Part shown: piece after piece, positions 1,188 to 25,199 of the stretch | Layout of the letters: every line of letters begins with the position of its first letter | How positions within the stretch are numbered: position 1 is the stretch's first letter | Source: Verrucomicrobiia bacterium | GTDB lineage: Bacteria; Verrucomicrobiota; Verrucomicrobiia; Limisphaerales; JAUIHU01 | Direction: 5' to 3' | Assembly (NCBI GenBank): GCA_030432175.1 | Contig: JAUIHU010000001.1 | Coordinates: 1-25,199, forward strand | DNA length: 25,199 nucleotides | Notes under the pieces: model-generated | Seen by the model: only the letters and a program-made list of their open reading frames with translations | What the model was told of the DNA's origin: nothing | The model's database searches: none | Position numbers and translations under genes: made by a program

Positions 1188-1208
1188 TACTTAACCCGGA
1201 CAGGAGAA

Positions 1209-2372: not shown

Positions 2373-2390
2373 ACACTTTGCCACAAAGGC

Positions 2391-5300: not shown

Positions 5301-5507
5301 TCGCGCCATATTCTGTCCACGACACTCACCACCATCGGAGGATTTCTGCCATTGTTGCTGGGAGGAAACGCTTTCTGGGTACCATTGGCAGTGGTGATTG
5401 CTGGAGGTGTTTCCGGCGCGACAATTCTGGCGCTGGTTTTTATCCCGTCAGTTTACATGCAGTTGCTCCGGTGGAAGCCCGGTTTGGGAGCAAGCGTTCA
5501 AAACTAA
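2391..5507 (+). CDS. RND efflux permease (AcrB/AcrD/AcrF family)
   Basis: 1038 aa with RND topology: N-terminal [19 protein letters not shown] porter motif, TM4 [12 protein letters not shown], a second periplasmic loop, and C-terminal TM bundle with [17 protein letters not shown]. Confidence 0.95.
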
Positions 5508-5523
5508 ATATATTTGTAATTAT

Positions 5524-7029
5524 ATGAATAAATTTGTGTTTATAATTACTGGAACTGCTGGCTTCTTGCTGGGTGTTGTTGGGTGTTCGGTTGGGAAAGA
5601 TTATGAACGCCCTGATCCGTTTCAGGGAGCGCTTTCAGAAGGATCGGAGTGGTCAGGGCTGTCAGGTGTTGAAGGAGCCGAACCAGCTGATCTTTTGGAG
5701 TGGTGGAAAGGTTGGGAGAATCCTGAATTGTTCGCCTGGATCGAACTTGCGCTGCAGCAAAGTCCAACATTGGAGCAGGCTGAGGCGCGGATTCTGGAAG
5801 CCAGAGCGGGAAGGTTGAATGCGAGATCCAGGTGGTGGCCGAATCTGAATCTGTACGGAGATGCTGTGCGGAATCGACTCAGTGAAAACGGGGTAGGCGC
5901 TGGATCAGCTGCGGCCTCTGCAGGTTTGGTTGATTTTGAAAACAGTTTCTTTCAAACCGGGTTTGATGCAAGTTGGGAAATTGATGTATTTGGGGGAACG
6001 AGACGAGCTGCTCAAGCGGGACAGGCACGATTGGAAAGCTCTGAAGCGAGGAGGGAAGCAGCTCGTTTGACACTGGCTTCTGAGGTGGCTCGCGCTTGGT
6101 TGGATTGGCGGTATTTGCAATTACAGTTGGATTTGCAGAATCAACAAGTTGCTGTTCTGAAAGAGCGGCAGGATTTATGGAATCGCAAACTGGAACTGGG
6201 ACTATGTAGTGAGATTGATTTTGATCGCAGGATGGCTGAACTGCGGTCCGCTGAAGCAGAAACACCGGCGATGGAAACAAATGTGCGATCTGCGAAGAAC
6301 CAGTTAATGGCGCTCGCGGGAATTCCGGCGAATCAAGAACTTCCGGAGGATGTGTCTTTCAGGGATAGCGGTATGACAACTGCGGACTGGATCAAGCTGC
6401 CTGAGCTTGGTGTTGGGGCTCCGGCAGCGTGGTTATTGCGACGCCCCGACTTGAAAGCTGCGGAAAGAGACTTGGCTGCGGCTGTTGCAGAAACAGGGGT
6501 TGCGAAGGCGGAATGGTATCCACGTTTCTTTCTGATAGGGACAGCCGGGTTGGAAAGCGGAAGTTTGACGGATTTATTCATGACTCAAAGTCGGACCTGG
6601 ACGATTGGGCCGAGTGTTCGGTGGTCTATATTTCAGGGAGGACGAATTCGCGCTGGAATACAAAGGAGTCAGGCTCGCGCTCAGCAGGCGTTAGCACGTT
6701 ATAAAGAGATCGGGTTAATCGCTATCACGGAAGTGGAAACCGGAATCATTGCTGCGCAGAATATGAGAACCAGCAAACAAAAAATGGAGCAGGCAGAGAA
6801 CAGTTCGCAAAAGGCGTGGCTGAAAGCTGAAGCGCTTCACAAACACGGTTTAATCGACCCTGGGCAAGCATTGGAACTACAATTGGAATGGCTGGGAATC
6901 AAAAGACAAGTGACCCGGGCAGGTCATGAAGAAGCGTTGGCGCTGGTGAGTCTTTGCAAGGCGTTGGGAGGAGGATGGGAAAAACGAGGTAGCGAAAGCG
7001 AAATTGCGGGTGTGACATTTGAAAATTGA
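5524..7029 (+). CDS. Outer-membrane efflux lipoprotein (OprM/NodT/TolC family)
   Basis: The ATG at 5524 gives MNKFVFIITGTAGFLLGVVGC with a lipobox. Motifs ASWEIDVFGGTRR, LLRRPDLKAAERDLAAA..G.AKAEWYP and SLCKALGGGW are typical of this family. The ORF-track start at 5398 overlaps the permease and is unlikely. Confidence 0.93.
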   Translation: MNKFVFIITGTAGFLLGVVGCSVGKDYERPDPFQGALSEGSEWSGLSGVEGAEPADLLEWWKGWENPELFAWIELALQQSPTLEQAEARILEARAGRLNARSRWWPNLNLYGDAVRNRLSENGVGAGSAAASAGLVDFENSFFQTGFDASWEIDVFGGTRRAAQAGQARLESSEARREAARLTLASEVARAWLDWRYLQLQLDLQNQQVAVLKERQDLWNRKLELGLCSEIDFDRRMAELRSAEAETPAMETNVRSAKNQLMALAGIPANQELPEDVSFRDSGMTTADWIKLPELGVGAPAAWLLRRPDLKAAERDLAAAVAETGVAKAEWYPRFFLIGTAGLESGSLTDLFMTQSRTWTIGPSVRWSIFQGGRIRAGIQRSQARAQQALARYKEIGLIAITEVETGIIAAQNMRTSKQKMEQAENSSQKAWLKAEALHKHGLIDPGQALELQLEWLGIKRQVTRAGHEEALALVSLCKALGGGWEKRGSESEIAGVTFEN

Positions 7030-8583: not shown

Positions 8584-8688
8584 ATTTTCTCAGCACATAC
8601 CTAAGAAGCGATCGCTCGCACAGGAACAACGACACCAATCAATAAATGAAGTTTCATTTTGCGGCAAAATAAGCATACTATTGGAATC

Positions 8689-9597
8689 ATGACTGATTAC
8701 AATTCCAACAACACACCTGCAGCGCTTCTCAAGGAGTGGTTGGACAGGGCTTTGTCGGAAACAACTGCGGGCTGGTTGCAGTCAGGCCTGGAGAAAGCTG
8801 ACGATCCGGTTTCTGATCAAGGTTTCTATGTGGCATTTGGAATGGTCCCAAGGAAGCTCGGCAAAGCGACTTTAGAATTGAACGATGAGGATTTGCAGAA
8901 AGCTGACGCAAGCCGTAAGGGGTGGCGTCCTCAAGGCTTGAGTGTTGATCAGGCAGCGAGATTGTTACTGACATTGAATCGTTCGGTCATTATGGGGGAT
9001 CGGTTTCCAGACTGGCTCGATCAATTGATTGCCACAGGAGATGTCGCGGAGCAGGTTGCTCTTTATCGAGGATTGCCATTGTTTCCGTATGACAAGAAAT
9101 TGTCGTTAAGAGCGCAGGAAGGATTGCGGACCAATATCAAGACCGTGTTTGAAGCCATTGCGCATGACAGTCCATTTCCCGCAGAGTATTTTGAAGAAAA
9201 CGCTTGGAACCACATGGTTTTGAAAGCGTTGTTTATAGGCAGCGCTCTTTATCCGATCCAGGGAATTGATCAACGGACTAATGTTCAACTCACCCGCATG
9301 CTGACGCAATACGCGCATGAACGATGGGCGGCAAAACGAGTGATCAGTCCTGAGTTGTGGCGATGTGTCGGGCGTTGTCCGAATGATAGCGCGCTGGACG
9401 ATTTGAAGCGGGTGATATCGAGTAGCGACGAGCTGGAAAATCGGGCTGCGGTTCTGGCTTTAAACGATTTCCCTGAGAAAAATGAATTAGTTGAAGGACT
9501 CCTTCAAACACAGACGGAGCTTTTGGCAGCAATTAAGAATGGAGAACTGACTTGGGATCGGCTTGGAGTTCAGGTAGCTGAAGGTTCCGGACAGTGA
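8689..9597 (+). CDS. eboA: EboA-domain protein
   Basis: Motifs AFGMVPRKLGK, SVDQAARLLL, EQVALYRGLPL, EGLRTNIKTVFEAIAH.SPFPAEYFEENAWNHMVLKALF match EboA-family proteins as I recall them. Adjacent to an EboB-like TatD gene. ATG at 8689 preferred to TTG at 8659. Confidence 0.8.
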   Translation: MTDYNSNNTPAALLKEWLDRALSETTAGWLQSGLEKADDPVSDQGFYVAFGMVPRKLGKATLELNDEDLQKADASRKGWRPQGLSVDQAARLLLTLNRSVIMGDRFPDWLDQLIATGDVAEQVALYRGLPLFPYDKKLSLRAQEGLRTNIKTVFEAIAHDSPFPAEYFEENAWNHMVLKALFIGSALYPIQGIDQRTNVQLTRMLTQYAHERWAAKRVISPELWRCVGRCPNDSALDDLKRVISSSDELENRAAVLALNDFPEKNELVEGLLQTQTELLAAIKNGELTWDRLGVQVAEGSGQ

Positions 9598-9658
9598 ATC
9601 AAGAGACATTCACTAGACACGCTAAGCCAATCTATTGAAATAGAAGAGTTGATTTACA

Positions 9659-10612
9659 ATGAGTGATGGATCTGACAATCAAAACGGAACCCTGGATCAG
9701 GGGTTGAAATTCATTGACCCGCACATTCATATGAACGCTCGGGTCACGGATGATTATGAGCGGATGGCGGCTGCCGGAGTGGTGGCGGTGATTGAACCTG
9801 CATTCTGGTTGGGGCAACCCAGAACCAGTATTGGGACATTTATTGATTACTACTCAACGCTGGTTGGGTGGGAGAGATTTCGCGCAGCGCAATTCGGGAT
9901 TCGGCATTACTGCGCCATTGGGCTGAACAGTAAAGAGGCGAACAACGAACCTTTGGCGGAGCAGGTTATGGAAATCCTGCCGCGTTTCCTGACCAAAGAA
10001 GGTGTCGTTGCCGTGGGAGAAATCGGATACGATGATCAGTCGGAAGCTGAAGATAAATACTTCCGCGCTCAGCTGGAACTGGCAAAAGAACTGGAGATGC
10101 TCGTCATGGTGCACACACCGCACCGAGATAAAAAACAGGGCACGACACGAAGCATGGACGTGATCGAGGAGCATGGGTTGGATCCGAGCCGAGTGGTGAT
10201 TGACCACAATAACGAAGAGACAGTTCGGGAGACATTGGATCGTGGATTCTGGGCAGCATTTACATTATATCCACGCACCAAAATGGGGAATGAGCGGATG
10301 GTGGAAATCGTCAGGCAATACGGATCGGATCGAATCATCGTAGACTCCAGCGCAGACTGGGCAATGTCAGATCCGCTGGCAGTTCCTAAAACTGGTCGGT
10401 TGATGTTAGAGCGAGGGATTTCAAGAGAAGACGTTCACAAGACCTGTTATCAAAATGCTTTGGACGCATATGGACAGAGTGGAGCATTTAACGAAGAGGA
10501 CTGGTTGAATCCAGCTCCGATTGATCAACGAATTTTGTTTGAAGGCAATTCAGTATTGCGTGGGCAGGCTCCCCGAGTGGATGAGGAAAAAGACAATTTA
10601 GTTATTGAGTAG
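9659..10612 (+). CDS. eboB: TatD-family metallohydrolase, EboB-like
   Basis: TatD metal-ligand motifs DPHIHM, VGEIG, VHTPH, IDH, DSSAD. The segment AGVVAVIEPAFWLGQPRT...GWERFRAAQFGIRHYC.IGLNSKEANN is characteristic of the EboB clade. Confidence 0.82.
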   Translation: MSDGSDNQNGTLDQGLKFIDPHIHMNARVTDDYERMAAAGVVAVIEPAFWLGQPRTSIGTFIDYYSTLVGWERFRAAQFGIRHYCAIGLNSKEANNEPLAEQVMEILPRFLTKEGVVAVGEIGYDDQSEAEDKYFRAQLELAKELEMLVMVHTPHRDKKQGTTRSMDVIEEHGLDPSRVVIDHNNEETVRETLDRGFWAAFTLYPRTKMGNERMVEIVRQYGSDRIIVDSSADWAMSDPLAVPKTGRLMLERGISREDVHKTCYQNALDAYGQSGAFNEEDWLNPAPIDQRILFEGNSVLRGQAPRVDEEKDNLVIE

Positions 10613-11252: not shown

Positions 11253-14200
11253 GTGAATATGCAACTCAAATCATCTTTGGCAAAGTTTTCGGGAAGCGTT
11301 GTTTCATTGACAAAGTTTTCAAAACTCCTGGCGTTGCCGTTATCACTGACGATTGCATTCAGTGTAGGGCAGGCTCAAAATCTGTCGATTCGGGAAGCTA
11401 AGTCTGGAGAGATTCCGCGACCTGTTGAAGCGTATTCGGATTTGAATTCCTGGTGGGGACAAGGGAAGGATCATTTTTGGCTGGCGTCGGATAATTTGGA
11501 TTCTCCATCGGAAAGTCAAGTCAACGTTCAAAGGGCGATTGCTTCCAGAGAGGCCCTGATTGAAATTGAAGTGGAACCCAGTGGATCACTTACAATTCAA
11601 CAGGCCCTGGATCAAGTTGTTTCTGGGGGAAGGATCATTTTGAAAAATGGAGAATATGCGGAGCGCATTCGCATCGACAAACCTGTGACGATACTGGGTG
11701 ATGGAGAAGTAACAATTACGTCACCGAACGATGAGACGATTGGATCGGTGGTGAGCATTCGTTCGTCTGGAGTTACTCTGGAGAATATGACGATCACAGG
11801 CGCGAGGGGGACCGGGAGAAATGGCGCAGGTGTTCGTGTATCTGGAGCTGATATTTCACAACTGAAGTTTGAAAATGTGAATGCGAGTCAGAATTTGGGA
11901 GACGGGTTCGCGTTTATTGTTTCAGGAAAATATAGCGCTATTGAATTTTTAGGAACCAATGCACGGTTAAATGAAGGATTTGGGATTGGATTTTATGGAG
12001 GGACTGCAATTAGTGGGCGGAACCATGAATTATCCGATATTCTTTTTGAAGGAAACCGTGACGATCGTGGAGTGGTTGCTTTTAATGAAGCTGGTGGAAT
12101 TTCAATTCGCCTGGGTTCCGGCGCTCAGGAATTAAGACATCAGATTGGGAATATTATTTTCCGGGATGCCGTTCTGGAAACTAATTACGGGGTGTCCCAG
12201 CTGATTATTCAAGGACTGACCCATCCATTGACATTTGAAGGTTGCTGGTTTAATGGCGGACTGTTCAGGGGATTCGACACCTCACAACCGTTGCCAATAT
12301 TGGTTCCATCCAGTCAGTATGCAATCATACTGATGGGAGCTCTGAAACAGGAATTTTACACACCGATTCCAGAGGTTAATTTCATCGCGAACAGTCAGGG
12401 ACAAGTCAACCAGTTTGATGGAATTTACTGGTTTGGGGTTTTGAACTGGATTGGGTGGAGTGATTTGGCAGGTGTACAGTTTGGAGAAAGTTCGGGGAGT
12501 GGAGGCGTTGGATTAGTTCCGGCGGTCGAGGTTGGAGCGACTTTGCAAGGGGAAGACTTGAGTGACTCCACAGCATTATTGAAAACAGGAGGAGCGCAGG
12601 GGAACTTGGATTTGTCTGGGCTGCTGATGGATTCTAATCGAAATGCCAGATTTGATTTGCTGATGGGCGGGCAACCATTCAGTGAAGATCCTGCAAATCC
12701 TGCGCCAACAACTGTGGCGGTGGATGCGAAAGGAATGCTTTTTGAGACCGCTTCAGGGGATATTAAAACTATTGAAGAAATGACTCTGGAAGAGCGATTC
12801 GAACAATCATCCCGGATGGTGACACAGTACAATCCTTCTGTAAGAAATTCAACAGCATTGGGATCCATTGAAATGGTCGAATCGGGCGATGTTTACATTG
12901 TTCCTTCACCAGGAAACAGCATCCAACAAATTCTGGAACGTGTTCCAGAGGGCTCTAGTGTATACGTTCAACGGGGAAATTATCCGGATGATACGACGCT
13001 TAACATAAACCGTGGGCTGAAAGTATTTTTTCAGGGTGGGCTGAATGCGGGGGGAAGCTCAGGAACAGGTGTGAATATTCCTGGACTTTCTCCAGAAGAT
13101 ATCAGCATTGATACAGGCGCGGAAACAGTTGAATTTGAAACACCTTCTGCGCCAGGGCTGACACAGGTAGAGGGAATTGTGTATTTGGATACCAACCGGA
13201 ATGGAACTCTGGAACCTGGAGATGGTCGACTGCAGGGAGCGGTGGTTTATCTGGATGACAACCGGAATGGACAACTGGACGAAGGGGAAATCTCTGTCAT
13301 ATCCGGCGCTGACGGCGCTTATTTGCTGCCAGTGGTCAATCTTGGCATTCGGGATATTGTGTTGGACCTCCCTGAAGGATTTGCTGCTGAACTGCCAACC
13401 GGGGGAAGTTATACAGAATCGCTGATTGCAGGAGACAATCTGGAGGATCGAAATTTCCTTCAAGCAGGAGTCGGACATATTTCGGGTGTGGCATGGGAAG
13501 ATTTGAATGGTGATAGCGTAAGAGATTCCACAGAACCTGAACTGAGTGGATTGGGAATTGTATTAAATCGACTCTCTGACACAGGGCAATCAATAGAAAG
13601 TTTAAGGACGTTGACTGATGAGTCTGGGGTTTTCTTGTTTGAGCGGTTATTTTCTGGAAACTATTCGTTCCGTAAGCCAGTTCCTGCAGATTGGATTTTG
13701 ACTCAGGCTCCAGGAGATGAAGGTCGGGTTGTGTCAGTGGGTGCAACTCCTTTGGAGAATCAGGATTTTGGAGCCTTCCAACTGGCTGCTATCAGCGGTT
13801 CCATTTACGAAGATGAAAATAAAAATGGAGTTTTGGATGAAGGAGAGCGCCTTGTTTCCGGCGCAACCGTCAGTCTGGATATGCAGAGGGATGGTTCATT
13901 AGAAGCTTTTCGTATCACTAATGAGTCGGGTGTATTTCATTTTACAGCCCTTGAGTCTCAGCCATTGAGTGTGTTTTCGCTTCTGCCTTCGTTGCCAGCG
14001 GGGTCGGAACGTTTGGAATCTGAATTGGATTTTGAAATTACTCAATCAGGTCAAGTGATAGATGACGCCATTGTTGGATTTTTCAATCCAGCCAGAGTTT
14101 CTGGTGAGGTGATTTTGCAGGCCGGATCTGATATTGGTCCGGCCGGATCTATCTCTGTTTCACTCGTAGATTCGAGTTCCGGAGAGATCGTTGATACGAC

Positions 14201-17200
14201 GATCAGCGCTTTGGATGGGACATTTGAATTAAGGAGTTCTCAACCTGGGGAGTTCAGTATACAAGCAGGACCATTGCCAGCGAACACACGAACCATCACG
14301 CTTCCTGAAGGTATAAATCTGGTCAGTGGATCTACTATTTCAGGACAAACAGTAGAACTGGCATTGAATCTCAATCCAATACTGGAATCCCAGACATTTA
14401 CCGGGACTCCTGAATTATCTCCGGCAGGCACAGTAGTTGGAATAATAGAAGCGGAGGATCCTGAGGCAGGCGCTATGACATTTGAAATAGTCTCTGGAAA
14501 CCAGATTGAGAATGCAGCCTTGAGGGCCTGGGCCTTCAGGGATCAGTTGGAATCGTTATTTGATGTAACAACAACGCGTGTTTTCGAGACTGCGCCACCC
14601 ATTGATGCTGGGAAGTTGTTACAGGGAATACGCTCTGTCGATGGAGTCAATCAAGTGGAGTTGTACTGGTTGACGGAAAATGGAGGGCTTTTTGCAAATG
14701 TTTATCCAGTTCAAGGTATTCCCGACGCAGATGCAGATTTGCTTGGAGAGAAGTTGGTTCAGTTAGATGGATCCTATTATAATAATCCTGATTTGCTGAT
14801 AGAAGCGTTTGAAAGACCGGAAGGACTGTTTCCGTTTGAGTTAGATGCAGCGACCGGTCATTTGGCATTGGCCACAAACACACTGATGCGCTCACAGCAA
14901 CCGGATGGTGGATTTCGTTTGGTTATTCGCGTTACGGACGAATTGGGGGCAAGCGCTGAAGGGGAAATAACTGTAGATTTACTTCCGGCAAACCTGGCCC
15001 CTGCTTTTATCCAAAACAACTGGACACGTGAGATCGCTGAAGCATCGGAGTCAGGGGTTTCGGTTGGAGAACCCATAATTGCCGAAGATCCTGAATCACA
15101 GGTTCTAACCTATTCAATCACCAGTCAGCAGGATACATTGGATCGACTCATCGAACTGGATAAAATTCATAAATTTCAGGATCCAACCGGTGGGGTGTAC
15201 AGTTTTAACGCACGAGGCGCTGGCGATAAGTGGCTTCATGGATCTCGTACACGCCAATGGTTTTATCTGGTTTTGGATCCGACTACGCGGAGAGCTGAAC
15301 TTTATGAGGCTCCGAAAGACGCAGGTCGTACATTGCAATTGGTTGCAGCTGGCGTGGAGCCTTTGGTTGAACTCAGTGATACCTTCTATGAAGATCCTTC
15401 TCTACTGGTTGGAATTGCGAACACTGATCCAAACCCGGACGCCTTTGCCATTGATAGCTCTACCGGTCAGATAAGGGTAGTCAACCCTCAATCATTAAAT
15501 CCGCTTTTCAATCCATATATCTATCTGACGATTCAGGTGGAAGATGCCGGTATGCCGCAGCTTTCAGCTGAGACCGAAGTCATTGTACGTATTGTTCCGA
15601 CATTGGATTTTCCAGGTATCTCCAGATTCACGAACCTTAGAATTTTGGAAAACTCACCGGCCGGGACACGCATTGGGCAGTTGGCGGCTTCAGATCCACA
15701 AGGGGAGGAAGACCTGGAGAGATTTGAGATACGATATGATGATTCTGGTCCTGGAAGTGAATCCTTCAGAATTGATGCGGACACAGGTGAGTTGTTTGTT
15801 GCTGATGGAGCGACACTGGATTTTGAAAATCAGATTTTTTATGAACTTAGAGTTCGTGTGACCGACCGAAGTCAGCGCTGGGCTGAAGGACGAGTGATTG
15901 TGGATTTGATCAATGTGGATGAGCCTGCGTTTTTGAATGTGGGTAATGGTTTGATCAGTGAAGGCAATGCTGGGAGCAAGTTGTTGGAAATCCCGGTCAA
16001 CCTGACAGCTGGGTTTGCACAGAACATTTTCCTTTCATACGACATTCAATCTGGAACAGCGGCAGAGGGAATTGATTTTGAGGACGCCAGTCCTGTTCCG
16101 GGAAGAGCGGTAATTATTCCTGGTGACCAGTCAACTCATCTGAGATTCAATATTTTTGGTGACACTGAACTTGAGGCTGACGAGACATTTACCGTGACGG
16201 TGGAGCTAGCGCCGGATGCGCCTGATTTGCTGTCCATCAACCAGGGTGATGGCACAGGGACAATTATTGATGATGATCGCCCTCGCGTTCTGGATAATGG
16301 TCGACCGGGGTTTAGCGCGATTGGTTCGGGATGGAATTCTCGAACTGCTAACGGGGCATATAACCAGAATTTACTGTTTGACGAATCAACAACCTCCTCT
16401 GCTAACTGGACATTCGAGGGCTTGGAGCCTGGAAAGTATCGCGTTTCTGTCAGCTCTCCTGCTTTAAGAGCGGTGGGATTTTATTCTGTCTGGGATGAAT
16501 CACGTCAATTGGCTGCTGAAGTGCGACAGGAAACATATACCTGGGCTGGAGGTTTGGGAACGGATTTCAGGGACGAGGAAGATGACTCGATTTTTTGGAA
16601 CGATCTTGGTGTTTATGAATCAACTTCAGGCAACCTGCAGGTGCGGTTGAAGAATAAACTGGAGACAGCAGGATTGACTCAAAGAATTAAACTCGCCGAT
16701 GCTGTTCGTGTTGAGCCAGTGGATCAATCTCCTGCAAAGATATTCATCAACGATCCTTTCCCGGTTCTTTATGGAGCAGATGCTGTTGTTCAGCTGGAAT
16801 TGAATGGTCCCGTAGATGAGACGATTTCTGTTGAGTATTCTATTATTGATCCCAATGGCGCACTAAACGACTTGAACGAGCGTTCAGGAACTTTGGTTAT
16901 GGAAGCTGGTTCTGACGGCGCTCAGCTAAATCTGAGTACTGTTAATTTTGAAAATCCGGGACTGGAAGATGAGCGTCAGTACACGGTCCGACTGGGACCA
17001 GTGACTCAAGGGTATGCTACTATTGTGAATCATTCTGCAGTTGGCAGGGTTGTGCCAGAGGAATTGATGAATCCGCAACTGGATTTGCTGGGACCTTCAT
17101 CGGTTTCGGAATCAACCACAGCCATACCCATGATCGCGAGGTTGAATTTTCCAGCGTCTGAGTTGATTGAAACGCGCTGGCAAGTCGGAGAAGTTTCGGA

Positions 17201-20200
17201 ATCTGGTGAAATTGGATCTGTTATTTCGTCGGGTGAACTGAGTTTTGCAGTTGGAATCAGAGAGGCGCTTTTTGAAATTCCTGCGTTGGACAACGACACC
17301 CCGGATTTACCGAATAGGCGTATGGTCGTCTGGTTAACTCCACGTACTCCTTCACAGGTGATTTCCGGCGATACAAGTCGGATTGTGGAGTTGGAAGATG
17401 ATGATGGGCCCATCATCGTTGATGCGCCGGATTTGAATTTTGGACAAGCCATTTACACTGAAACCAATTTGAGATCCGGGATAAGTGACTGGTCGGACTT
17501 TAACACAGGTTACGGAGGTGTATCGCGAATGATACAGGGGAATATATCGGAGCCTGGGGCTACAGCCATCGGGCAATGGAAGGTGTTTGGGCTGGTTCCT
17601 GGCGCTTTTTACAGAGTCTCTGCAACATGGCCCGGAAATAGTTCATTCACTCGACAAGCGCCATTCCGGATCTATCAGGATGATGAAGCCACTGGTGATT
17701 TAGATTGGGTCGGAGGCGCATTCCTGGATCAATCACTTTCGCCGGATGATTTCGTCACGGATGAGCTTGGGAGATTGACTGAACAAGGGTCTGTTTATTG
17801 GGAGGATGTCGGTTTTTTCAGGGCTGAAACAGAAGACTGGAGAATACAAGTCAGCAACAATGTGCAGGGAGTTGTGGTTGCTGATGCGGTTCGGATTGAA
17901 AGGGTCTTTATCCCTGTTGTGGAAACGATTCCAAACCAGACCAGTGAAGCTGGCGTACCATTGGAGGCGCTGGTGCAACTGGGTCATAGTGATCCAGAGC
18001 GCAATCTGGAGGACGTCGAGATTCAGTCGGTAAGATCTTCCTCCGAATTAATTGTTCCGAATACAATACGCAGTGGCGCAGGAATAACATGGGAACCTGT
18101 TTCGAGAGAACAGGGAATCTGGAGAGTGCGAATTCAGCCGATGGGAATCAGAACCGGGTTGGTTAATTTTACGGTGCGGATTACTGATGGAGAAACTCCT
18201 GTTGAAACAGAATTCAGTGTAGTTTTTCAACGAACCAATTTCCTTTTTGATTTTGGCGTCAGCGGGCTTGTGGAAACACCCGACACTCCTTTCATTGCTA
18301 TTTCAAAAAGTTCACTTTATCGCAGCTCCATGCAATACGGTTGGATCGTTAACCGTGGATTGAGCGTTGATTCAACCGAAGCGGCTGATTTGGCATTGAA
18401 AGATGCAGTTACCGGACCGGTTGCGGTGGATTTCAAATTGGGAGGATTGCCTGCTGGTGATTCATTTGAAATCGATCTGCTGCTTGGGCGTGATAATGAC
18501 AGTCTGGCATCGGGGACTCTGGTGCAGGCAATAGGGCGAGATGAAAATGTCGTTGATTCAGCGAGTTTTTATTACACGGTTTCAGAGAAGCCTGACTCTT
18601 TGAGAAAAGTTTCATTAGTGGCTACGGCAAATTCAGATGGAGAACTGATCATCAGGTTCAGCCCTTACCGTCCTGTAACAGCTCAGGCAGGTTTGAGATT
18701 TGCTATTACAGCCATGCAGGTTCGACCTTTGGGAGCGGAGTCAGTTTCTGCGTGGGAGAGTAAATTGTTAGCTGCCAATCTGAATGGAAATCTTGCCTCT
18801 GCCAATCAAACAATGACTCCACCAAATCCTGGAATCGGCTTGCAATCCAGAGTGGGAGGTGGAGGGGAAATCACATCCATGCCGGCGGCTCTCTGGTTGG
18901 ATGATGGTGGGGTTTCCTTTACAGCCTCCGAGGGATGGGATTCGATAGATGGATTTGGTTTTGAATCTGGTTTGCACTACTTTGCTTCCAGTTCTGCCGA
19001 CGAAACAGCAGACGTTGCTTCCTGGACGTTTATGAATCTTGAGAGTGGGATCTATCGTTTAGCCGCGCATTGGGAAGAAGGTGTGAATCGTTCGGAGCAG
19101 GTGCGTGTTCGTGTCCGACACCAGGATGAAGTGTATGGACCCTTCGTTCTGAACCAGAAACAAGCTCCAGAAGATTTTCAAAAACATGGAACGAATTGGG
19201 ACTGGGTCGGTGATCAGGAATTTTTTGTCGCTTTTGATAGTTTCTCACCAGGGACAGAGCGGGAAGATGGGAGTTTGATTCCTCAGGATTATAATCATTT
19301 TGTTGTGGAAATCCTGCCTTCAGCCGACGGTGTTACGGTTGCCGATGCAGTCTTGCTGGAAGCTGTGGGAGTTGAGCAAATCATAGCCAGTCCGCCTGCG
19401 GAATTGGAGGTTGTAGAAGGAAATACAATCGGGACAGATCTGTTAGTGGAGGTGAATCTTTCGACGGCCCCGTTGGATTTTGTTTCGTTGGATTATCAAG
19501 TGATCGCTGGAAGCGCAACGGGAGGTGTCGATGTGGAACTGGGGGAAGGCAGTCTGATATTTGGTCCGGGGCAAATTGTCAGTCAGATGCTGGTTCCGAT
19601 TTTTGGAGACACTCGTATTGAGGGTGATGAAACTTTCATTATTGAATGGAGCAATTCTATAGGGGTGGACTTAACTCGAACGGAAACTCCTGTGTTGATC
19701 ATAGATGATGATGGCGGTCGATCTGTACAACCATTAAGTGATTCAGTATCAGTCCTGGAGGCTCGGATAGAGGGGGCGATGGTTTGGCGGGATACTGACT
19801 TGAATGGGAGTCTGGATCCATTTGAGTCTGTTGCGACGAGTGATAGCAATGGAGTCGCTCAGTTTGCGATTTTAGAGTCACGCCTAAATTCTCCACTACG
19901 AGCTTCTGGTGGAATCGATCGTGCAACGGGAGATCCGATGATCTATCCGCTGTCAGCGCCACAATCGGCGACCACGATTCATTCATTGACCACATTGTTA
20001 CAATCGCTGGTTGATGAATATCCAACAATTGATTTGGTAGAACATGTAGAGAAGCTTCAAAATGTTTTTGGTATAGATGCAGCAATATCGGTATTGAATC
20101 AAAACGCTCGTGCAGCTTTTCAAGTTGGGTTCAGTGAATCTGCCGCCCGGGTGTTAATCGCGCAAACACTCATTGAAAGCCGGATCCTGGGCTTGGGTTC

Positions 20201-21509
20201 GTTCCGTCTGGGGCAGATGACTGGTGGCTTTTCGGATCAGGAATCTGCTTGGCGCGTTCTGTCGAATGATATTTTCAAAGCTGTAGCTCGGTTGATTGAA
20301 GAAACGCCCATTGGCGCATCAAGCTGGCTTTGGGCAGACCCTGACTGGAATCTGGATTTCCTGAATCAAATTTTCTTCGAGCTGGGTTGGGAGTTGGATT
20401 CATCGGATATTCAGGCGTTAGCGCAGGCTCTTGCTGATCAAGCAGCATTTCTGGATACAATCATGATGAATGAACTCGCCTTGGAAGAAGAAGATCAGCG
20501 CGTCCAGGCGTTGGCTCAATTGTCTCAATTTCGTGCTTATTTGAAGAGAGATTGGAAGGGCTCTCTTGCTGCTTTGGGAAGAGGAGAAGTTTCAAGCGCC
20601 GATTGGATGGATGCGCATTCTGGCGCTGCAATGGAGAGTTTGATACTAACACAATCCACTTTGAATCCAGTGGGTCAAAACCTCAGTCCTGGCCGTATTT
20701 CCTTGATAGTCAGGGAATATGCAGCTTACGAATCAGAGTTGAGAATTGGAGTAGAGGTGAACCGTACTGGTGGATCTCTGGGGGCAGTGAGTGGCGTATT
20801 ACAACCCTTTTCCGGGCAAGCGGAACTGGGTGTTGATGTACTTTCGGATCCGGTGACTTTCAGTTTTAGTTCAGGGGAAGCTGGTTCCAAAATAGTTTAC
20901 TTAGGAATTCTGGATGATGATGAAGCTGAAGAAAACGAAGAATTTTTCATTGAGCTTGTGTCGGTTTCGGGAGGCGCAGCCTTGGATGTTCCGGTAAGAA
21001 TTGCAGCTACCATTCTAGACGACGATTCGGACTCTGCTGCGATATCCGTTCGTTTACGACCTGAATTTAACGCCGGTCAAAATATGATGACCCTGGCCTG
21101 GCCTGAATTCCTTGACGGATTTTCGGAACTGCAATCGTTGGATGGTTTTGGTGACACGGGTGGATGGCGCTCTGTGTTAAAAGATGGTTCAGTAGTTTTG
21201 TTTGGGATCCGGCATTTAACTGTGCCAATTGAAGCAGAGGGTTCCCGGTTTTACAGATTATTGATCGAGCCTCCAGCCCTTGGGATGCGAAACATTAACG
21301 GTGTGGCCACGATCGTCTGCCCGACGGTTGGAGATGGAATGGTTCTTGAAATGCTGGATCTTTCGAACCCGGAAGCAGGTTGGATTCCTGTTCCAGTGTC
21401 CCCTGGCGATAAGGTTAAGGATGAAGCCAAACAAGCCTGGTTAATTCCGGTTCCTCCTGGCTCTGAGGGTCGGTTGTTCCGGTTAAGAGGGGAAATGGAG
21501 GAGTTTTGA
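11253..21509 (+). CDS. Giant (3418 aa) secreted multidomain surface protein/adhesin: beta-helix-like head, SdrD-B-like, cadherin, Calx-beta and golvesin-like domains
   Basis: Uninterrupted 10.26 kb ORF with a Sec-type signal (KLLALPLSLTIAFSVGQA|Q) and repeated recognisable domain motifs, listed separately below. Start is GTG 11253 or ATG 11259, downstream of GGTAGGGA. Confidence 0.93.
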   Translation: MNMQLKSSLAKFSGSVVSLTKFSKLLALPLSLTIAFSVGQAQNLSIREAKSGEIPRPVEAYSDLNSWWGQGKDHFWLASDNLDSPSESQVNVQRAIASREALIEIEVEPSGSLTIQQALDQVVSGGRIILKNGEYAERIRIDKPVTILGDGEVTITSPNDETIGSVVSIRSSGVTLENMTITGARGTGRNGAGVRVSGADISQLKFENVNASQNLGDGFAFIVSGKYSAIEFLGTNARLNEGFGIGFYGGTAISGRNHELSDILFEGNRDDRGVVAFNEAGGISIRLGSGAQELRHQIGNIIFRDAVLETNYGVSQLIIQGLTHPLTFEGCWFNGGLFRGFDTSQPLPILVPSSQYAIILMGALKQEFYTPIPEVNFIANSQGQVNQFDGIYWFGVLNWIGWSDLAGVQFGESSGSGGVGLVPAVEVGATLQGEDLSDSTALLKTGGAQGNLDLSGLLMDSNRNARFDLLMGGQPFSEDPANPAPTTVAVDAKGMLFETASGDIKTIEEMTLEERFEQSSRMVTQYNPSVRNSTALGSIEMVESGDVYIVPSPGNSIQQILERVPEGSSVYVQRGNYPDDTTLNINRGLKVFFQGGLNAGGSSGTGVNIPGLSPEDISIDTGAETVEFETPSAPGLTQVEGIVYLDTNRNGTLEPGDGRLQGAVVYLDDNRNGQLDEGEISVISGADGAYLLPVVNLGIRDIVLDLPEGFAAELPTGGSYTESLIAGDNLEDRNFLQAGVGHISGVAWEDLNGDSVRDSTEPELSGLGIVLNRLSDTGQSIESLRTLTDESGVFLFERLFSGNYSFRKPVPADWILTQAPGDEGRVVSVGATPLENQDFGAFQLAAISGSIYEDENKNGVLDEGERLVSGATVSLDMQRDGSLEAFRITNESGVFHFTALESQPLSVFSLLPSLPAGSERLESELDFEITQSGQVIDDAIVGFFNPARVSGEVILQAGSDIGPAGSISVSLVDSSSGEIVDTTISALDGTFELRSSQPGEFSIQAGPLPANTRTITLPEGINLVSGSTISGQTVELALNLNPILESQTFTGTPELSPAGTVVGIIEAEDPEAGAMTFEIVSGNQIENAALRAWAFRDQLESLFDVTTTRVFETAPPIDAGKLLQGIRSVDGVNQVELYWLTENGGLFANVYPVQGIPDADADLLGEKLVQLDGSYYNNPDLLIEAFERPEGLFPFELDAATGHLALATNTLMRSQQPDGGFRLVIRVTDELGASAEGEITVDLLPANLAPAFIQNNWTREIAEASESGVSVGEPIIAEDPESQVLTYSITSQQDTLDRLIELDKIHKFQDPTGGVYSFNARGAGDKWLHGSRTRQWFYLVLDPTTRRAELYEAPKDAGRTLQLVAAGVEPLVELSDTFYEDPSLLVGIANTDPNPDAFAIDSSTGQIRVVNPQSLNPLFNPYIYLTIQVEDAGMPQLSAETEVIVRIVPTLDFPGISRFTNLRILENSPAGTRIGQLAASDPQGEEDLERFEIRYDDSGPGSESFRIDADTGELFVADGATLDFENQIFYELRVRVTDRSQRWAEGRVIVDLINVDEPAFLNVGNGLISEGNAGSKLLEIPVNLTAGFAQNIFLSYDIQSGTAAEGIDFEDASPVPGRAVIIPGDQSTHLRFNIFGDTELEADETFTVTVELAPDAPDLLSINQGDGTGTIIDDDRPRVLDNGRPGFSAIGSGWNSRTANGAYNQNLLFDESTTSSANWTFEGLEPGKYRVSVSSPALRAVGFYSVWDESRQLAAEVRQETYTWAGGLGTDFRDEEDDSIFWNDLGVYESTSGNLQVRLKNKLETAGLTQRIKLADAVRVEPVDQSPAKIFINDPFPVLYGADAVVQLELNGPVDETISVEYSIIDPNGALNDLNERSGTLVMEAGSDGAQLNLSTVNFENPGLEDERQYTVRLGPVTQGYATIVNHSAVGRVVPEELMNPQLDLLGPSSVSESTTAIPMIARLNFPASELIETRWQVGEVSESGEIGSVISSGELSFAVGIREALFEIPALDNDTPDLPNRRMVVWLTPRTPSQVISGDTSRIVELEDDDGPIIVDAPDLNFGQAIYTETNLRSGISDWSDFNTGYGGVSRMIQGNISEPGATAIGQWKVFGLVPGAFYRVSATWPGNSSFTRQAPFRIYQDDEATGDLDWVGGAFLDQSLSPDDFVTDELGRLTEQGSVYWEDVGFFRAETEDWRIQVSNNVQGVVVADAVRIERVFIPVVETIPNQTSEAGVPLEALVQLGHSDPERNLEDVEIQSVRSSSELIVPNTIRSGAGITWEPVSREQGIWRVRIQPMGIRTGLVNFTVRITDGETPVETEFSVVFQRTNFLFDFGVSGLVETPDTPFIAISKSSLYRSSMQYGWIVNRGLSVDSTEAADLALKDAVTGPVAVDFKLGGLPAGDSFEIDLLLGRDNDSLASGTLVQAIGRDENVVDSASFYYTVSEKPDSLRKVSLVATANSDGELIIRFSPYRPVTAQAGLRFAITAMQVRPLGAESVSAWESKLLAANLNGNLASANQTMTPPNPGIGLQSRVGGGGEITSMPAALWLDDGGVSFTASEGWDSIDGFGFESGLHYFASSSADETADVASWTFMNLESGIYRLAAHWEEGVNRSEQVRVRVRHQDEVYGPFVLNQKQAPEDFQKHGTNWDWVGDQEFFVAFDSFSPGTEREDGSLIPQDYNHFVVEILPSADGVTVADAVLLEAVGVEQIIASPPAELEVVEGNTIGTDLLVEVNLSTAPLDFVSLDYQVIAGSATGGVDVELGEGSLIFGPGQIVSQMLVPIFGDTRIEGDETFIIEWSNSIGVDLTRTETPVLIIDDDGGRSVQPLSDSVSVLEARIEGAMVWRDTDLNGSLDPFESVATSDSNGVAQFAILESRLNSPLRASGGIDRATGDPMIYPLSAPQSATTIHSLTTLLQSLVDEYPTIDLVEHVEKLQNVFGIDAAISVLNQNARAAFQVGFSESAARVLIAQTLIESRILGLGSFRLGQMTGGFSDQESAWRVLSNDIFKAVARLIEETPIGASSWLWADPDWNLDFLNQIFFELGWELDSSDIQALAQALADQAAFLDTIMMNELALEEEDQRVQALAQLSQFRAYLKRDWKGSLAALGRGEVSSADWMDAHSGAAMESLILTQSTLNPVGQNLSPGRISLIVREYAAYESELRIGVEVNRTGGSLGAVSGVLQPFSGQAELGVDVLSDPVTFSFSSGEAGSKIVYLGILDDDEAEENEEFFIELVSVSGGAALDVPVRIAATILDDDSDSAAISVRLRPEFNAGQNMMTLAWPEFLDGFSELQSLDGFGDTGGWRSVLKDGSVVLFGIRHLTVPIEAEGSRFYRLLIEPPALGMRNINGVATIVCPTVGDGMVLEMLDLSNPEAGWIPVPVSPGDKVKDEAKQAWLIPVPPGSEGRLFRLRGEMEEF
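11592..13030 (+). other. Right-handed beta-helix (pectin-lyase-fold-like) head region of giant protein 1
   Basis: Cap motif TIQQALDQVVSGGRIILKNGEY.E.I.IDKPVTILG followed by strand repeats (GVTLENMTITG, LKFENVNASQNLGDGF, NARLNEGFGI). A second cap motif, SIQQILERVPEGSSVYVQRGNY, lies near 12918. Confidence 0.65.
13164..14366 (+). repeat. Four tandem SdrD-B-like (Cna-B-type) Ig repeats, the fourth degenerate
   Basis: Repeats open with EGIVYLDTNRNGTLE (13164), SGVAWEDLNGDSVRD (13473), SGSIYEDENKNGVLD (13785) and SGEVILQ (14091). They contain T..DG.Y/F motifs and the first three end in NF/DFG/GFF. Confidence 0.8.
14373..15926 (+). repeat. Three tandem cadherin-like domains; the first two are interrupted by ~105-aa insertions
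   Basis: E.SP/S.G..VG/IG...A.DP starts, F.ID..TG.(L/I) cores and L.(I/V).VTD/VED ends. Domain 3 (15600-15926) is canonical and includes LDFE. Confidence 0.82.
15930..21026 (+). repeat. Dispersed Calx-beta domains (about five)
   Basis: Clear copies at 15930-16277, 19401-19712 and 20697-21026 (EG....V.L, GTA..G.D, I.GD...E.DETF, TI.DDD). More divergent copies at ~16730-17055 and ~17080-17405. Confidence 0.75.
16281..19364 (+). repeat. Three dispersed golvesin/xanthan-lyase CBD-like modules
   Basis: Copies at 16281-16718, 17409-17903 and 18888-19364 share W.(F/V)..L..G..YR(V/L)...(W/P), a (D/E)DF...W..(L/V)G segment and a terminal ADAV(R/L).E motif. Confidence 0.68.
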
Positions 21510-21590: not shown

Positions 21591-21905
21591 AGTTTCGCAA
21601 TGCATAAGCTTCTTTTCTGGCTGTATAGTTGGTGTTCGGGTGGCTTATAAAGTTCAGCTGTTTTGTAGATTGGGCATGCTTACTGCTGATAGATCATTTA
21701 CACGGTGGAAGGGGATTTGGTTCAGTAATGGATGTTGGAAGGCCAACCTGAGAAGGGACTGATTTTGTTCTGTTTCTAAGTTCCTGTTTAACAATTAACG
21801 TTATTACCCTGGCAAAAAAGCATTCTTAGATTGCTGGTTATGCAATGCAATCACACGTTTATGCAATTTCCGATTAACATTGGAGATATTACATCAGCTG
21901 GACGC

Positions 21906-24900
21906 ATGATTGTAAAATTGACGATATTGGTGTTGTTCATTTCCAGGTTGGTGGCAGGAGTTGCTGGTCAATCAGTGATGGAGCTTGAAGCTGGTGATGT
22001 CTCGGCGTTCGGAGCGGGGCTGGATCGGGTTGAAGCGCTTCCAGGGGTTGAGGGAAGTATTCAGCAAGCTCTGAATCAAGTGGCGGACGGAGGGCAAATT
22101 GTTTTAAAATCGGGAGAATTCCAGGAGCGTTTCATTATAGCAAAGCCAGTCACTATTGTCGGAGATGGAACGGTATTGCTTGCTGAGCCAAATGATGGAA
22201 ATCCGGGCCCGATTGTTTCAATTCAATCAACTGGAGTAACACTGGAAAATCTGACGGTATCAGGATCACAAGGAGAGGGGGTTCTGGTTTCCGGATTTGA
22301 TATTTCGAACGTCAGGTTTCGAGGGATTACTGTCAATCTGAACCAGGGTGATGGCATTGTATTTGAGGTTTCAGGAAAGTATGAAGAGATTGAGTTTTTA
22401 AATACCAATATCATTCTGAATGAAGGGATGGGGATTGCATTTATTCCTGGATTACCTGGATTGGCTGGACAAAGGGAATTGACAGGATTGCGCTTTGAAG
22501 GAAACAGGGATGATCTTGGTGTTGTTGGATTTAATGGTTCCGGTGGTATAACAATACAATTGGATGAGGCGGGCGAGGGAGTCGCAAATGTGATCGGTGA
22601 CTTCGAATTCAGAAATTTCGTGCTGGAATCCAATGATGGAGGTTCAAATTTATTGGTTCAGGGCCTGACACGGCCGATTACTTTTGAAGGATGCTGGTTT
22701 CATGGCGGTCCGATTCGAAGATTTCAATTACCCGGCAATTTCACCACAGTATCTCCATCCAGCTATTTTGGTATTACTTTAATCGGATCGCTCAAGGAGG
22801 AATCCATGACCTCGATACCGCCTGTGAGGTTTCTTTCCAACGCTGAAGGACAAAAAAATCTGTTTGATGGGATCTATCGCTTTGGAGTCTTGAACTGGAT
22901 TGGGTGGAGTGATTTGTCAGCTGTTCGGTTCGGTGGCAGAGATGAGAGTGTTGATCCAGAAATCACTTTTCCAGCAGTCGAAGTGACGGCTTCATTACAA
23001 GGGGAAAACCGGGATGATTCTGCTGCTGTTTTGATATTGAGGGGAGTTGGCGGGACTCTTGATTTGACTGGTATTCAACTTGGGATTACCCGGAAGGCTA
23101 ACCGGGACCTGATGATGGACGGGATTTACTCGGATGAGTTTCCCGAATTGTCAATCCCGTCCAGTGTGGTCGTTGATGCAACTCAATTACTCTTTGAAAC
23201 ATCCTTTGGAGAGGTCATTTCGATCAATGAGATGAGTCTGGATCAGCGCTTCGATCAATCCTCCAGAATGGTAAGCGTTTATAATCCACTAAATAAAAGG
23301 AGCGTTGCTACGGGGTTTGTAGAATTAGTTGAAGGTGGAGACGTATTTGTTACTCCGGGTTCTGGAAGAAGTATTCAGGAAACACTCGATCTGGCTCCTG
23401 CTGGCTCCAATGTTTTTATTCAACGTGGAGAATATCCCGATGACACCGAGTTATTGATTGGTCGTGGGCAAACTGTGTTTTTTCAGGGAGGATTGAGTCC
23501 TGGCGGAGAAGTAAGTGGAGGCGTACGATTACCTGCGCTGAATGCAGAGAATATTGTCGTTGATTCATCAGCTCAGGTGATTGGATTCAATACCCCGACT
23601 GACCCTGGGTTGGCGGAGATATCCGGGAGGGTGTTTCTGGATTCCAATCGAAACGGGATCCTGGATGACGCGGATCTTCCCGTTGAAGGGGTGACCGTAT
23701 ATCTGGACCAGAATCGTAATGGGACATTTGATGAAGGAGAAAGCTTTGTAACCGTCGAGGAGGATGGGGCATACAAACTGAGTGATATTAACATTGGGAC
23801 CCGTGTGTTGAGAGTGAATGTAGCTGCGGGTTACGGCGCAATTCTGCCTGCCGCTGGAAGTTATACTGAATTCCTTAGAGTTGGCAGTCGGTTGACCGGC
23901 AGGAACTTTCTGATCAGTGGAGTCGGTGTCGTAGCTGGGACAGTCTGGGAGGATGTGAATGCTGATGGTATTCGAGATACAGCAGAACCAGCCACTGATA
24001 ATATGGAAGTGATACTGAGTCGACTTGCAGAAGATGGCAGTCCGATTGAGACGTTCAGAACAAGAACAGATGAAGCGGGTACATTCACACTGCGTTCATT
24101 ATTTCCCGGTCGATACGAGTTCAGAAATCCATTTCCTGCAGGCTGGGTTTTAACTCGAAAACCTGGAGATGAGATCATGCAAATTGAGGTTGGGGGTGAG
24201 GTGTTCGACTCTCAGGATTTTGGTGGATTCAAACTCGCGAAGATCAGCGGTAAAATATATGAGGATTTCAATAAGAACGGCAGGCTGGATGACAATGATT
24301 CATTATTGGTTGGCGCGACAGTCAGTCTGGACATGGGGAGAGATGAAGGTTTGGATGCGTTTACAGTTACTGATGAATTCGGAGTTTTTGAATTTTCCGG
24401 CGTTTCATCATTTCCGTTGGGTGTGCTCACCATACTGCCTGCATTGAAGCCTGGAGCTGAAATACTGGAATCACGCCTCAACTTTGAAATCACCCACTCT
24501 GGCCAGATCATTGACAATGCTGTTCTTGGATTTTTCCGACCTGCCACTGTTTCCGGGCAGGTTGTGCTCCGCACTGAGAATACGAATGCTGGAGTTCAGA
24601 ATGTCGTTGTTTCATTGGTTAATGCAGATACGGACGTTGTGGTTGATTCGATCAGAACAGACTCCGATGGAACATTTGAATTGGTCAGCGCACAAACTGG
24701 ACCGTATGAGGTTAGAATTAACTCGCTTCCACAGAACACCCGGATGATTTCTGAGCCTGAAAGTTTCAACCTGTTTAGTGGATCGGTCATCATCGGGCAG
24801 ATCATAGAGCTGGCGCCTAACAGACCTCCAGTCATCCAACAACAAGCATTCAGTGGAATTCAGGAAATGTCGCCGCCAGGAACAGAAGTGGGATCCATTC

Positions 24901-25199
24901 TCACACAAGACCCGGATGGTGATCCTGTGAAATATGAAATCGTCTCGGGAAACAATGTGGAAACCATCGCCTCCATGGCATGGCGGTTCAGGTTGGAACA
25001 CGAGAATTTGTTGGACGTCACTTCAACTCGAATATTTAACCATGCGCTTCCAGTCCGGCCAGGGAGACTGCTTCAGGGAGTGCGGTTTGTTGATGGGGTT
25101 GAACAATTGGATCTTTACTGGCTCACATTAGATGGAGGTGTATATGAGAATTTATATGATGGATCAGAAGCGCCGGACGAAGACACAATCGTCATTGGG
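21906..25199 (+). CDS. Second giant surface protein, paralog of 11253..21509; 3'-truncated by the window edge and missing from the ORF track
   Basis: Manual translation shows the frame open from 21792 (after TAA at 21789) to the window end. In-frame ATGs lie at 21840, 21861 and 21906; 21906 gives the signal-like MIVKLTILVLFISRLVAGVAGQ. Domain order matches gene 1: beta-helix head, SdrD-B-like repeats (23616-24815), then cadherin with the same insertion. 42 of 70 residues are identical in one hand-aligned block (11592-11801 vs 22056-22265). Confidence 0.9.
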   Translation, partial: MIVKLTILVLFISRLVAGVAGQSVMELEAGDVSAFGAGLDRVEALPGVEGSIQQALNQVADGGQIVLKSGEFQERFIIAKPVTIVGDGTVLLAEPNDGNPGPIVSIQSTGVTLENLTVSGSQGEGVLVSGFDISNVRFRGITVNLNQGDGIVFEVSGKYEEIEFLNTNIILNEGMGIAFIPGLPGLAGQRELTGLRFEGNRDDLGVVGFNGSGGITIQLDEAGEGVANVIGDFEFRNFVLESNDGGSNLLVQGLTRPITFEGCWFHGGPIRRFQLPGNFTTVSPSSYFGITLIGSLKEESMTSIPPVRFLSNAEGQKNLFDGIYRFGVLNWIGWSDLSAVRFGGRDESVDPEITFPAVEVTASLQGENRDDSAAVLILRGVGGTLDLTGIQLGITRKANRDLMMDGIYSDEFPELSIPSSVVVDATQLLFETSFGEVISINEMSLDQRFDQSSRMVSVYNPLNKRSVATGFVELVEGGDVFVTPGSGRSIQETLDLAPAGSNVFIQRGEYPDDTELLIGRGQTVFFQGGLSPGGEVSGGVRLPALNAENIVVDSSAQVIGFNTPTDPGLAEISGRVFLDSNRNGILDDADLPVEGVTVYLDQNRNGTFDEGESFVTVEEDGAYKLSDINIGTRVLRVNVAAGYGAILPAAGSYTEFLRVGSRLTGRNFLISGVGVVAGTVWEDVNADGIRDTAEPATDNMEVILSRLAEDGSPIETFRTRTDEAGTFTLRSLFPGRYEFRNPFPAGWVLTRKPGDEIMQIEVGGEVFDSQDFGGFKLAKISGKIYEDFNKNGRLDDNDSLLVGATVSLDMGRDEGLDAFTVTDEFGVFEFSGVSSFPLGVLTILPALKPGAEILESRLNFEITHSGQIIDNAVLGFFRPATVSGQVVLRTENTNAGVQNVVVSLVNADTDVVVDSIRTDSDGTFELVSAQTGPYEVRINSLPQNTRMISEPESFNLFSGSVIIGQIIELAPNRPPVIQQQAFSGIQEMSPPGTEVGSILTQDPDGDPVKYEIVSGNNVETIASMAWRFRLEHENLLDVTSTRIFNHALPVRPGRLLQGVRFVDGVEQLDLYWLTLDGGVYENLYDGSEAPDEDTIVIG

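Follow-up and report, generated by a model that had tools for sequence, protein, structure and literature searches.

A small module nested in two cadherin domains of a giant secreted protein from a Verrucomicrobiia bacterium

A giant surface protein with two split cadherin domains

The window, that is, the whole stretch of DNA analyzed here (25,199 nucleotides), is a complete contig (JAUIHU010000001.1) of a metagenome-assembled genome (MAG; 751 contigs, 78% complete) of a Verrucomicrobiia bacterium. By rpoB, the genome falls in Verrucomicrobiota; its best named relatives, ~84–85% identical, bear the labels Verrucomicrobiales, Pedosphaera, or Verrucomicrobia. On the forward strand of the window, which also holds the domains, inserts, and paralog described below, positions 11253..21509 encode a giant secreted surface protein of 3418 amino acids (aa), established from the list of open reading frames (ORFs), the translation, and the Pfam matches. 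The N terminus, read from the translation, looks like a Sec signal peptide and the head is beta-helix-like. In the Pfam scan, the protein shows SdrD_B/CarboxypepD_reg-like, three cadherin, Calx-beta, and Golvesin_C domains, and no HemolysinCabind/RTX (repeats-in-toxin) match. A collinear tandem paralog begins at 21831 and runs off the contig end. A single full ortholog was found, P0004 (3396 aa), in an independent metagenome and in the same gene neighborhood. The first two cadherin domains each hold an insert, and these inserts and their hosts are the subject of this analysis.

Cadherin domain 1 (14370..15005) is split into an N half (aa 1040–1083) and a C half (aa 1190–1251), as seen in the spliced alignment and in the superposition of the AlphaFold2 model. 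Cadherin domain 2 (15006..15626) is split likewise (aa 1252–1293 and aa 1397–1458), with a Pfam match in addition to the alignment and the model. Cadherin domain 3 (15627..15932) is uninterrupted and constitutes an internal control; Pfam Cadherin extends over residues 1462–1550 (profile 3–90 of 93). The FEI/YSI strand is separated from the FxLD/FxID..TG strand by 115 residues in cadherin 1 and by 108 in cadherin 2, as against 11 in cadherin 3. In cadherin 2, Pfam Cadherin matches the C half only, from profile position 39 of 93, and the insertion is therefore in the loop after the third strand.

After in silico removal of aa 1084–1189 and aa 1294–1396, the spliced sequences were searched against cadherin-rich proteins, and an alignment was counted as crossing the junction with at least 10 residues on either side. 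With ordinary cadherin domains of other proteins, 376 of the 377 alignments of spliced cadherin 1 cross the junction, as do 555 of 566 for spliced cadherin 2. A whole-domain match to cadherin (PF00028) is obtained for cadherin 3 as it stands and for cadherins 1 and 2 once the inserts are removed.

An AlphaFold2 model of aa 1036–1460, made with 53 alignment rows, has a mean pLDDT (predicted local distance difference test) of 81, the cadherin halves being modeled from three sequences only. Ordinary cadherin domains, whole or halved, were tried as additions to the model alignment and dropped, since MAFFT misplaced them. Model residues 2–213 superpose on the EC9 repeat of CDH23 (7uqu) over 101 aa at 2.0 Å (Z 13.0). 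Single cadherin chains 7tni and 2wbx likewise superpose on model residues 2–213, aligning only ~100 residues; single chains fit both halves at 2.0–2.4 Å, with the insert skipped. With two-domain cadherin chains, 197–203 aa are aligned over model residues 3–418 (Z 13–14). In view of these superpositions, each pair of halves is predicted to form one cadherin fold, and the two folds would stand in tandem with the inserts skipped (the seven-stranded beta-sandwich of PDB cadherins is found in the predicted model). The initial annotation had proposed a nested insert in a complete cadherin, and this holds, as the halves join into one fold in the model and the spliced halves align end to end. Its positions and strings are all exact: GKLLQGIR (14610–14633) and LYWL (14661–14672) in insert 1, DKWLHGSR (15225–15248) and WFYL (15258–15269) in insert 2, and the shared C-terminal motif, LVQLDGSYYNNPDLL at 14754–14798 and LVELSDTFYEDPSLL at 15363–15407.

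The Ca2+ motifs xEx, DxD, DRE, xDx, and DxNDN were read by eye on the cadherin alignment. The xEx and DPE/DPD motifs are found in all three cadherins. Cadherin 3 keeps an LDRE-like LDFE and a DxNDN-like INVDEP. At the LDxE-like and the N/D-rich linker positions, cadherin 1 has LMRSQQ and LPANLAP, and cadherin 2 has LNPLFN and VPTLDFP. Some ordinary bacterial cadherin domains without inserts are also without the LDxE motif. Since cadherins 1 and 2 are without the LDRE-like and DxNDN-like motifs kept by cadherin 3, the Ca2+-rigidified stalk invoked in the initial annotation is doubtful, and the same doubt extends, from these motifs, to the rigidity that Ca2+ would give to the two junctions below the split domains.

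Downstream from the cadherins, Pfam gives two Golvesin_C matches (aa ~2555–2640 and a second copy) and three Calx-beta domains. A long N-terminal region of the 3418-aa protein is without any Pfam match.

The inserted module, its family, and its hosts

Insert 2 (15132..15440; aa 1294–1396; 103 aa) is 60% identical to its counterpart in the ortholog, without gaps, and was also modeled alone. Its module core (15156..15407; aa 1302–1385) is, by HMMER and the iterated profile, a full-length member of a family of ~72 aa. Insert 1 (14502..14819; aa 1084–1189; 106 aa) is probably a divergent copy; it is conserved in the ortholog and the paralog and included in the model.

The family was collected by an exhaustive HMMER search with the insert 2 profile over 1.84 billion representatives (E ≤ 1e-3). 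Thirty proteins were found (best E 2.6e-18), each with 2–8 matched stretches, except the 3418-aa protein itself, which has one. The iteration converged on 118 copies in 28 proteins, with the 72-position consensus LDQQLGLSAPGGNYYFNARGLGEKYLRGANSSQWYYILPNGELYRWTGSSAILASTLVATLDAAYYQDPSLL and the pattern LDQ..NARGxGEKW..WYYILPNGELY..LVATLD..YYxDPSLL. The matches in P0102, P0119, and P0125 were lost on iteration; P0119 and P0125 also carry matches to PD40/DPPIV-type propellers and are probably chance matches to the hairpin. Against the 118-copy profile, insert 2 gives E 1e-16 over profile positions 1–72, and the genome profile search returned the same coordinates for its core.

Compared directly, the two inserts show little. 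BLASTP gives E 0.001 over 18 residues, in the C-terminal motif only, and a profile–profile comparison of the shallow alignments (hhalign) gives E 0.007 with a probability of 5.6%. Through the family, the relation is clearer. With insert 1 left out of the family profile, its three-sequence alignment matches the 118-copy profile in hhalign with a probability of 94.4% (E 8.5e-8, score 40.8), while the controls reach at most 15.5 over 60 column shuffles and 9.9 for the reversed alignment. In hmmsearch with the family profile, aa 1127–1182 of insert 1 are matched at E 0.003, and the same region is matched in the ortholog. The part of insert 1 confidently homologous to the C-terminal half of the module (hhalign, hmmsearch) is at 14664..14798 (aa 1138–1182; YWLTENGGLF ... 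LVQLDGSYYNNPDLL). These C-terminal ~45 residues match the family, and the N-terminal half, including the NxRGxGEKW segment, is without detectable similarity. In the AlphaFold2 model, both inserts share the same predicted order of elements: a helix, a three-stranded meander, a fourth strand, and two short helices. Insert 2 is thus a canonical copy of the module and insert 1 probably a divergent one, with homology of insert 1 demonstrable for the C-terminal half only; the kinship of the inserts claimed initially stands to that extent, through the family profile.

Both inserts are kept. The identity to the ortholog is 55% for insert 1 and 60% for insert 2, without a gap in either, compared with 33–55% for the four host half-domains. 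In the paralog, the 82 residues of insert 1 that are visible (24951–25199) show 49% identity, again without gaps. Judged from these comparisons, the inserts are maintained, as well conserved as the host halves or better, as the initial annotation had argued from the paralog.

The module is rare. Among the Verrucomicrobiota genomes sampled, it occurs in 2 of 301 (its own genome counted), and the insert 1 type occurs only in its own genome. Among the Planctomycetota genomes sampled, with 14 candidates scored per genome, it occurs in at least 4 of 401; in four Planctomycetota genomes reached via unrelated loci, the module was found in none. The carriers are extracellular proteins, with Peptidase_M10, Peptidase_S8, a trypsin-like protease, CotH with dockerin, FG-GAP, invasin D3, or the Planctomycete extracellular signal. 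In the ESM-Atlas, a shape search finds the module only within Planctomycetota multidomain proteins with SdrD_B or Peptidase_S8 and Big_9 (template-modeling (TM) score 0.60–0.61). A feature search there with both inserts gave low-recognition, unrelated matches (DUF6531/RHS, phage proteins), which were dropped as leads.

The copies in other proteins are spaced either by ~165–199 aa, corresponding to the module and one Ig-like (immunoglobulin-like) domain, or by 76–99 aa, corresponding to tandem modules; there are three longer gaps. The modules were deleted in silico, and the uninterrupted Big_9-like repeat of P0098 was used as the query. At 98 of 116 junctions, the site is inside the Ig-like domain alignment, at position ~43–53 of 95, directly after the “LxYTA” strand, which is topologically the same place as in cadherins 1 and 2. 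The hosts of these nested copies are tandem-95/Big_9 Ig-like repeats, in which Pfam and NCBIfam match half-domains only (Cadherin_5 59–89 of 98, Big_9 43–81 of 89, tandem-95 repeat 38–90 of 98). In many carriers, there is one module on every consecutive repeat, four to seven in a row. In P0103, P0117, and P0104, the hosts contain two to four tandem modules, and P0106, P0116, P0120, and P0124 have free tandem copies only. The initial annotation had pointed to free-standing copies in Planctomycetota. Such copies do exist, but most copies are nested (98 of 116), and the family is rare there (at least 4 of 401 genomes).

A further host type occurs in the second Verrucomicrobiota genome (G247), in which comparison with the next, uninterrupted domain shows the module within an SdrD_B-like domain, ahead of its last strand. 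That locus (L006, G247:C43) has one canonical module at ~G247:C43:1810–2025, in an open frame of 2163 aa with Calx-beta-like repeats.

The stand-alone AlphaFold2 model of insert 2 has a pLDDT of 89.2 and a predicted TM score (pTM) of 0.83. Because free tandem copies occur and this model is confident, the module is predicted to fold autonomously. Fold relatives of the insert 2 model were found neither with Foldseek against the PDB (best E 0.88), nor with VIA-align, where the best of 48,161 chains reached Z 3.7, nor in the AlphaFold database (AFDB) clusters (best E 0.18, TM below 0.4). No Pfam family could be named in the initial annotation, and indeed none covers the module in the Pfam copy scanned, nor does any NCBIfam family (release 20.0). 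The module thus defines a domain family, uncatalogued in both, with a confident predicted fold and no solved or clustered relative.

Sub-threshold matches fall on the central hairpin only (Choline_bind_1, PH_20, designed or natural propeller blades, LytA repeats). In the Pfam scan, neither insert matched Choline_bind_1 (PF01473) or PH_20 (PF20399), and the strongest matches of single copies elsewhere (E 0.0016 for Choline_bind_1, 0.023 for PH_20) stay under the cut-off. One whole protein, P0103 (Gemmataceae MAG protein HZU38876.1), is over the PH_20 cut-off with 44 versus 27 bits, by the sum of four partial hairpin matches. The PH_20 profile may pick up the module spuriously, or it may be distantly related to part of it.

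Known systems and the possible role of the module

In RTX adhesins, a split Ig-like domain projects a sugar- or peptide-binding domain (PMC10865825, PMC12077191). Such split-domain units are known in FrhA of V. cholerae, AhLap of A. hydrophila, and MpIBP of M. primoryensis (PMC10865825, PMC12077191, bioRxiv 10.1101/2025.09.30.679566). The present case resembles these units: a beta-sandwich of the stalk is interrupted in the sequence, a whole second domain, its N and C termini adjacent, would bud sideways off the fiber axis, and the carrier is a giant surface protein. The differences are several. The BIg extender of RTX adhesins has its split behind the first strand or ahead of the last two, whereas here a PF00028 cadherin is split mid-domain, in the C–D loop (~position 38 of 93). 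RTX adhesins have an RTX beta-roll, a type I secretion system (T1SS) signal, and an N-terminal retention module; the 3418-aa protein has a Sec signal peptide and neither an RTX beta-roll nor a T1SS signal. With no RTX match and a Sec-type N terminus, it is therefore not an RTX adhesin and shares only the design. The inserts of RTX adhesins are a carbohydrate-binding module (CBM), PA14, vWFA, or peptide-binding domain, whereas here a module of ~85–105 aa is found for which the searches gave no fold relative. Finally, the RTX unit is confined to the distal ligand-binding region, whereas, in relatives of the present module, the unit is repeated four to seven times in tandem.

With ordinary bacterial and animal cadherin repeats (PF00028; CDH23 EC9, 7uqu), the spliced sequences and the modeled fold agree, and cadherin 3 has canonical motifs. 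On the other hand, cadherins 1 and 2 hold a module of 103–106 aa, predicted to be autonomous, in the C–D loop, and their Ca2+ motifs are degenerate. The usual hosts, the tandem-95 repeat/Big_9/Cadherin_5 domains (NF012211, PF17963, PF17892) of Planctomycetota-type extracellular proteins, receive the module in the equivalent loop after the “LxYTA” strand; they belong to an Ig-like family other than PF00028, and neither the Pfam nor the NCBIfam models describe the nested form. The cell-wall/choline-binding hairpins (PF01473; LytA, PDB 1hcx) and propeller blades show a weak likeness in sequence and shape to the GxWYYILPNGxLY hairpin of the module. Those matches, however, are sub-threshold and cover ~20–45 residues; the module has extra helices and occurs once per unit, without a solenoid. 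This likeness is a lead and not a relationship.

As a general design, the nested architecture is already published: RTX adhesins have split Ig-like domains from which another domain projects. What differs here is the host family, the mid-domain split site, an insert fold without known relative, and the long tandem arrays. The searchable literature yielded no account of this module, nor of any cadherin domain serving as an insertion host. The split-domain layout for sideways display of a module from a fiber is not peculiar to the RTX adhesins of Proteobacteria; it is found also with true cadherins and tandem-95 repeats in Verrucomicrobiota and Planctomycetota. Because homology tools detect half-domains only, host and insert alike escape the annotation of such giant proteins. 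With the family profile and the insertion site, these units could be mapped and the module expressed with correct boundaries.

The arrangement can be pictured as follows. In the split cadherins 1 and 2, the chain would leave the sandwich after the third strand (FEI/YSI), fold into a small alpha/beta module, return, and complete the cadherin fold. The module would start with an N-terminal helix, continue in a three-stranded meander holding the WYYILPNG hairpin and then in a fourth strand, and close with two short helices bearing YYxDPSLL. In the cadherin topology, the C–D loop is at the domain end facing the next repeat, the same end as the Ca2+-binding linker. From that position of the loop, the module is expected to project as a knob near the junction to the next cadherin.

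The family to which the module belongs is rare, uncatalogued, and insertion-competent, and it is found in extracellular proteins of the PVC (Planctomycetes–Verrucomicrobia–Chlamydiae) type. We slightly favor the view that it is a displayed binding knob. Its binding would most likely be of low affinity and multivalent, for a glycan or another surface polymer. Three observations point to this reading: the resemblance to RTX adhesins, whose split-domain units display sugar- or peptide-binding domains; the conserved positions of the module, which are rich in aromatic residues; and the carriers, which are adhesin-like proteins and secreted proteases, the module also occurring beside proteases without an Ig-like host. 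Several points weigh on the other side. Searches in Pfam, NCBIfam, the PDB (Foldseek), VIA, and the AFDB clusters brought up neither a ligand or binding site nor a functional homolog. The best-conserved segment of the family, NxRGxGEKW, is missing in insert 1. The orientation of the knob is a deduction from topology. A small module that decorates every repeat of a stalk (four to seven in a row) fits a structural role equally well, and, being at the inter-domain end where exactly those junctions have degenerate Ca2+ motifs, it may be a brace of the junction instead.

The main rival to the binding knob is accordingly a structural module, which would pack on the linker and the next domain, replacing Ca2+ as a brace, or would thicken and protect the stalk, without binding any external ligand. 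The shared position of the C–D loop and the Ca2+-binding linker, which is established cadherin topology, would suit such a brace, as would the loss of the LDRE-like and DxNDN-like motifs in cadherins 1 and 2 with both kept in the uninterrupted cadherin 3, and the decoration of every consecutive repeat in many carriers, as for a stalk element. The motif loss, however, is not specific, since some insert-free bacterial cadherins also are without LDxE. Further, free-standing modules occur beside proteases without an Ig-like host, and, in the SdrD_B-like host, the module occupies another loop, which speaks against a single fixed packing partner. We regard a purely structural role as rather unlikely.

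Self-association, in which homophilic contacts between fibers or between copies would lead to a surface mesh or to cell aggregation, is improbable. In its favor, the copies are multivalent with regular spacing, homophilic contacts are classical for cadherin-type proteins, and the hairpin at the center of the module bears a weak likeness to repeat hairpins that pack on one another (cell-wall-binding repeats, propeller blades). Against it, the 3418-aa protein has one canonical and one divergent copy only. That the inserts are long lineage-specific loops, decaying functionless remnants, or an artifact of assembly or annotation, as the weak direct similarity of the two inserts and the single ortholog and single paralog known might suggest, is hardly credible with an unbroken ORF, both inserts present at the syntenic place of an independent metagenome assembly, gapless and conserved as well as their hosts or better, insert 2 a full-length member of a 118-copy family, and both models confident.

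The binding knob can be taken one step further, tentatively. The module might be a new autonomous fold acting as a portable plug-in binding knob, inserted independently into at least three families of beta-sandwich hosts (cadherin, tandem-95/Big_9, and SdrD_B-like) and occurring also as free arrays on secreted proteases. We see this as possible rather than probable. If true, the plug-in knob would represent a previously unrecognized class of substrate- or surface-targeting domains in PVC bacteria.

The tandem paralog and the neighboring genes

In the paralog, the N half of cadherin 1 and the first 83 residues of insert 1 (from 24951) are at 24828..25199, with 48% identity over 124 aa (E 4e-43) in the search of the own genome. 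The paralog is missing from the syntenic locus (L003) of the only metagenome contig bearing the ortholog. The tandem duplication is therefore specific to the lineage of the 3418-aa protein, or it was lost in the other lineage.

Upstream, at 420–7029, there is an efflux operon with a TetR regulator, a membrane-fusion protein, an AcrB-type pump of the resistance–nodulation–division (RND) type, and an outer-membrane factor. The nearest relatives of the RND pump in species genomes are at most 47% identical and are of mixed phyla. The ORF at 8659–9597 has no match in the Pfam copy scanned, but its ortholog at L003 carries an EboA (PF28008) tag. Next comes a TatD-like hydrolase (9659–10612), ~80–84% identical to proteins labeled Proteobacteria, Myxococcota, and Planctomycetes. 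This conservation of the hydrolase across phyla is unusually high and suggests a horizontally spread ebo-type gene pair (8659–10612).

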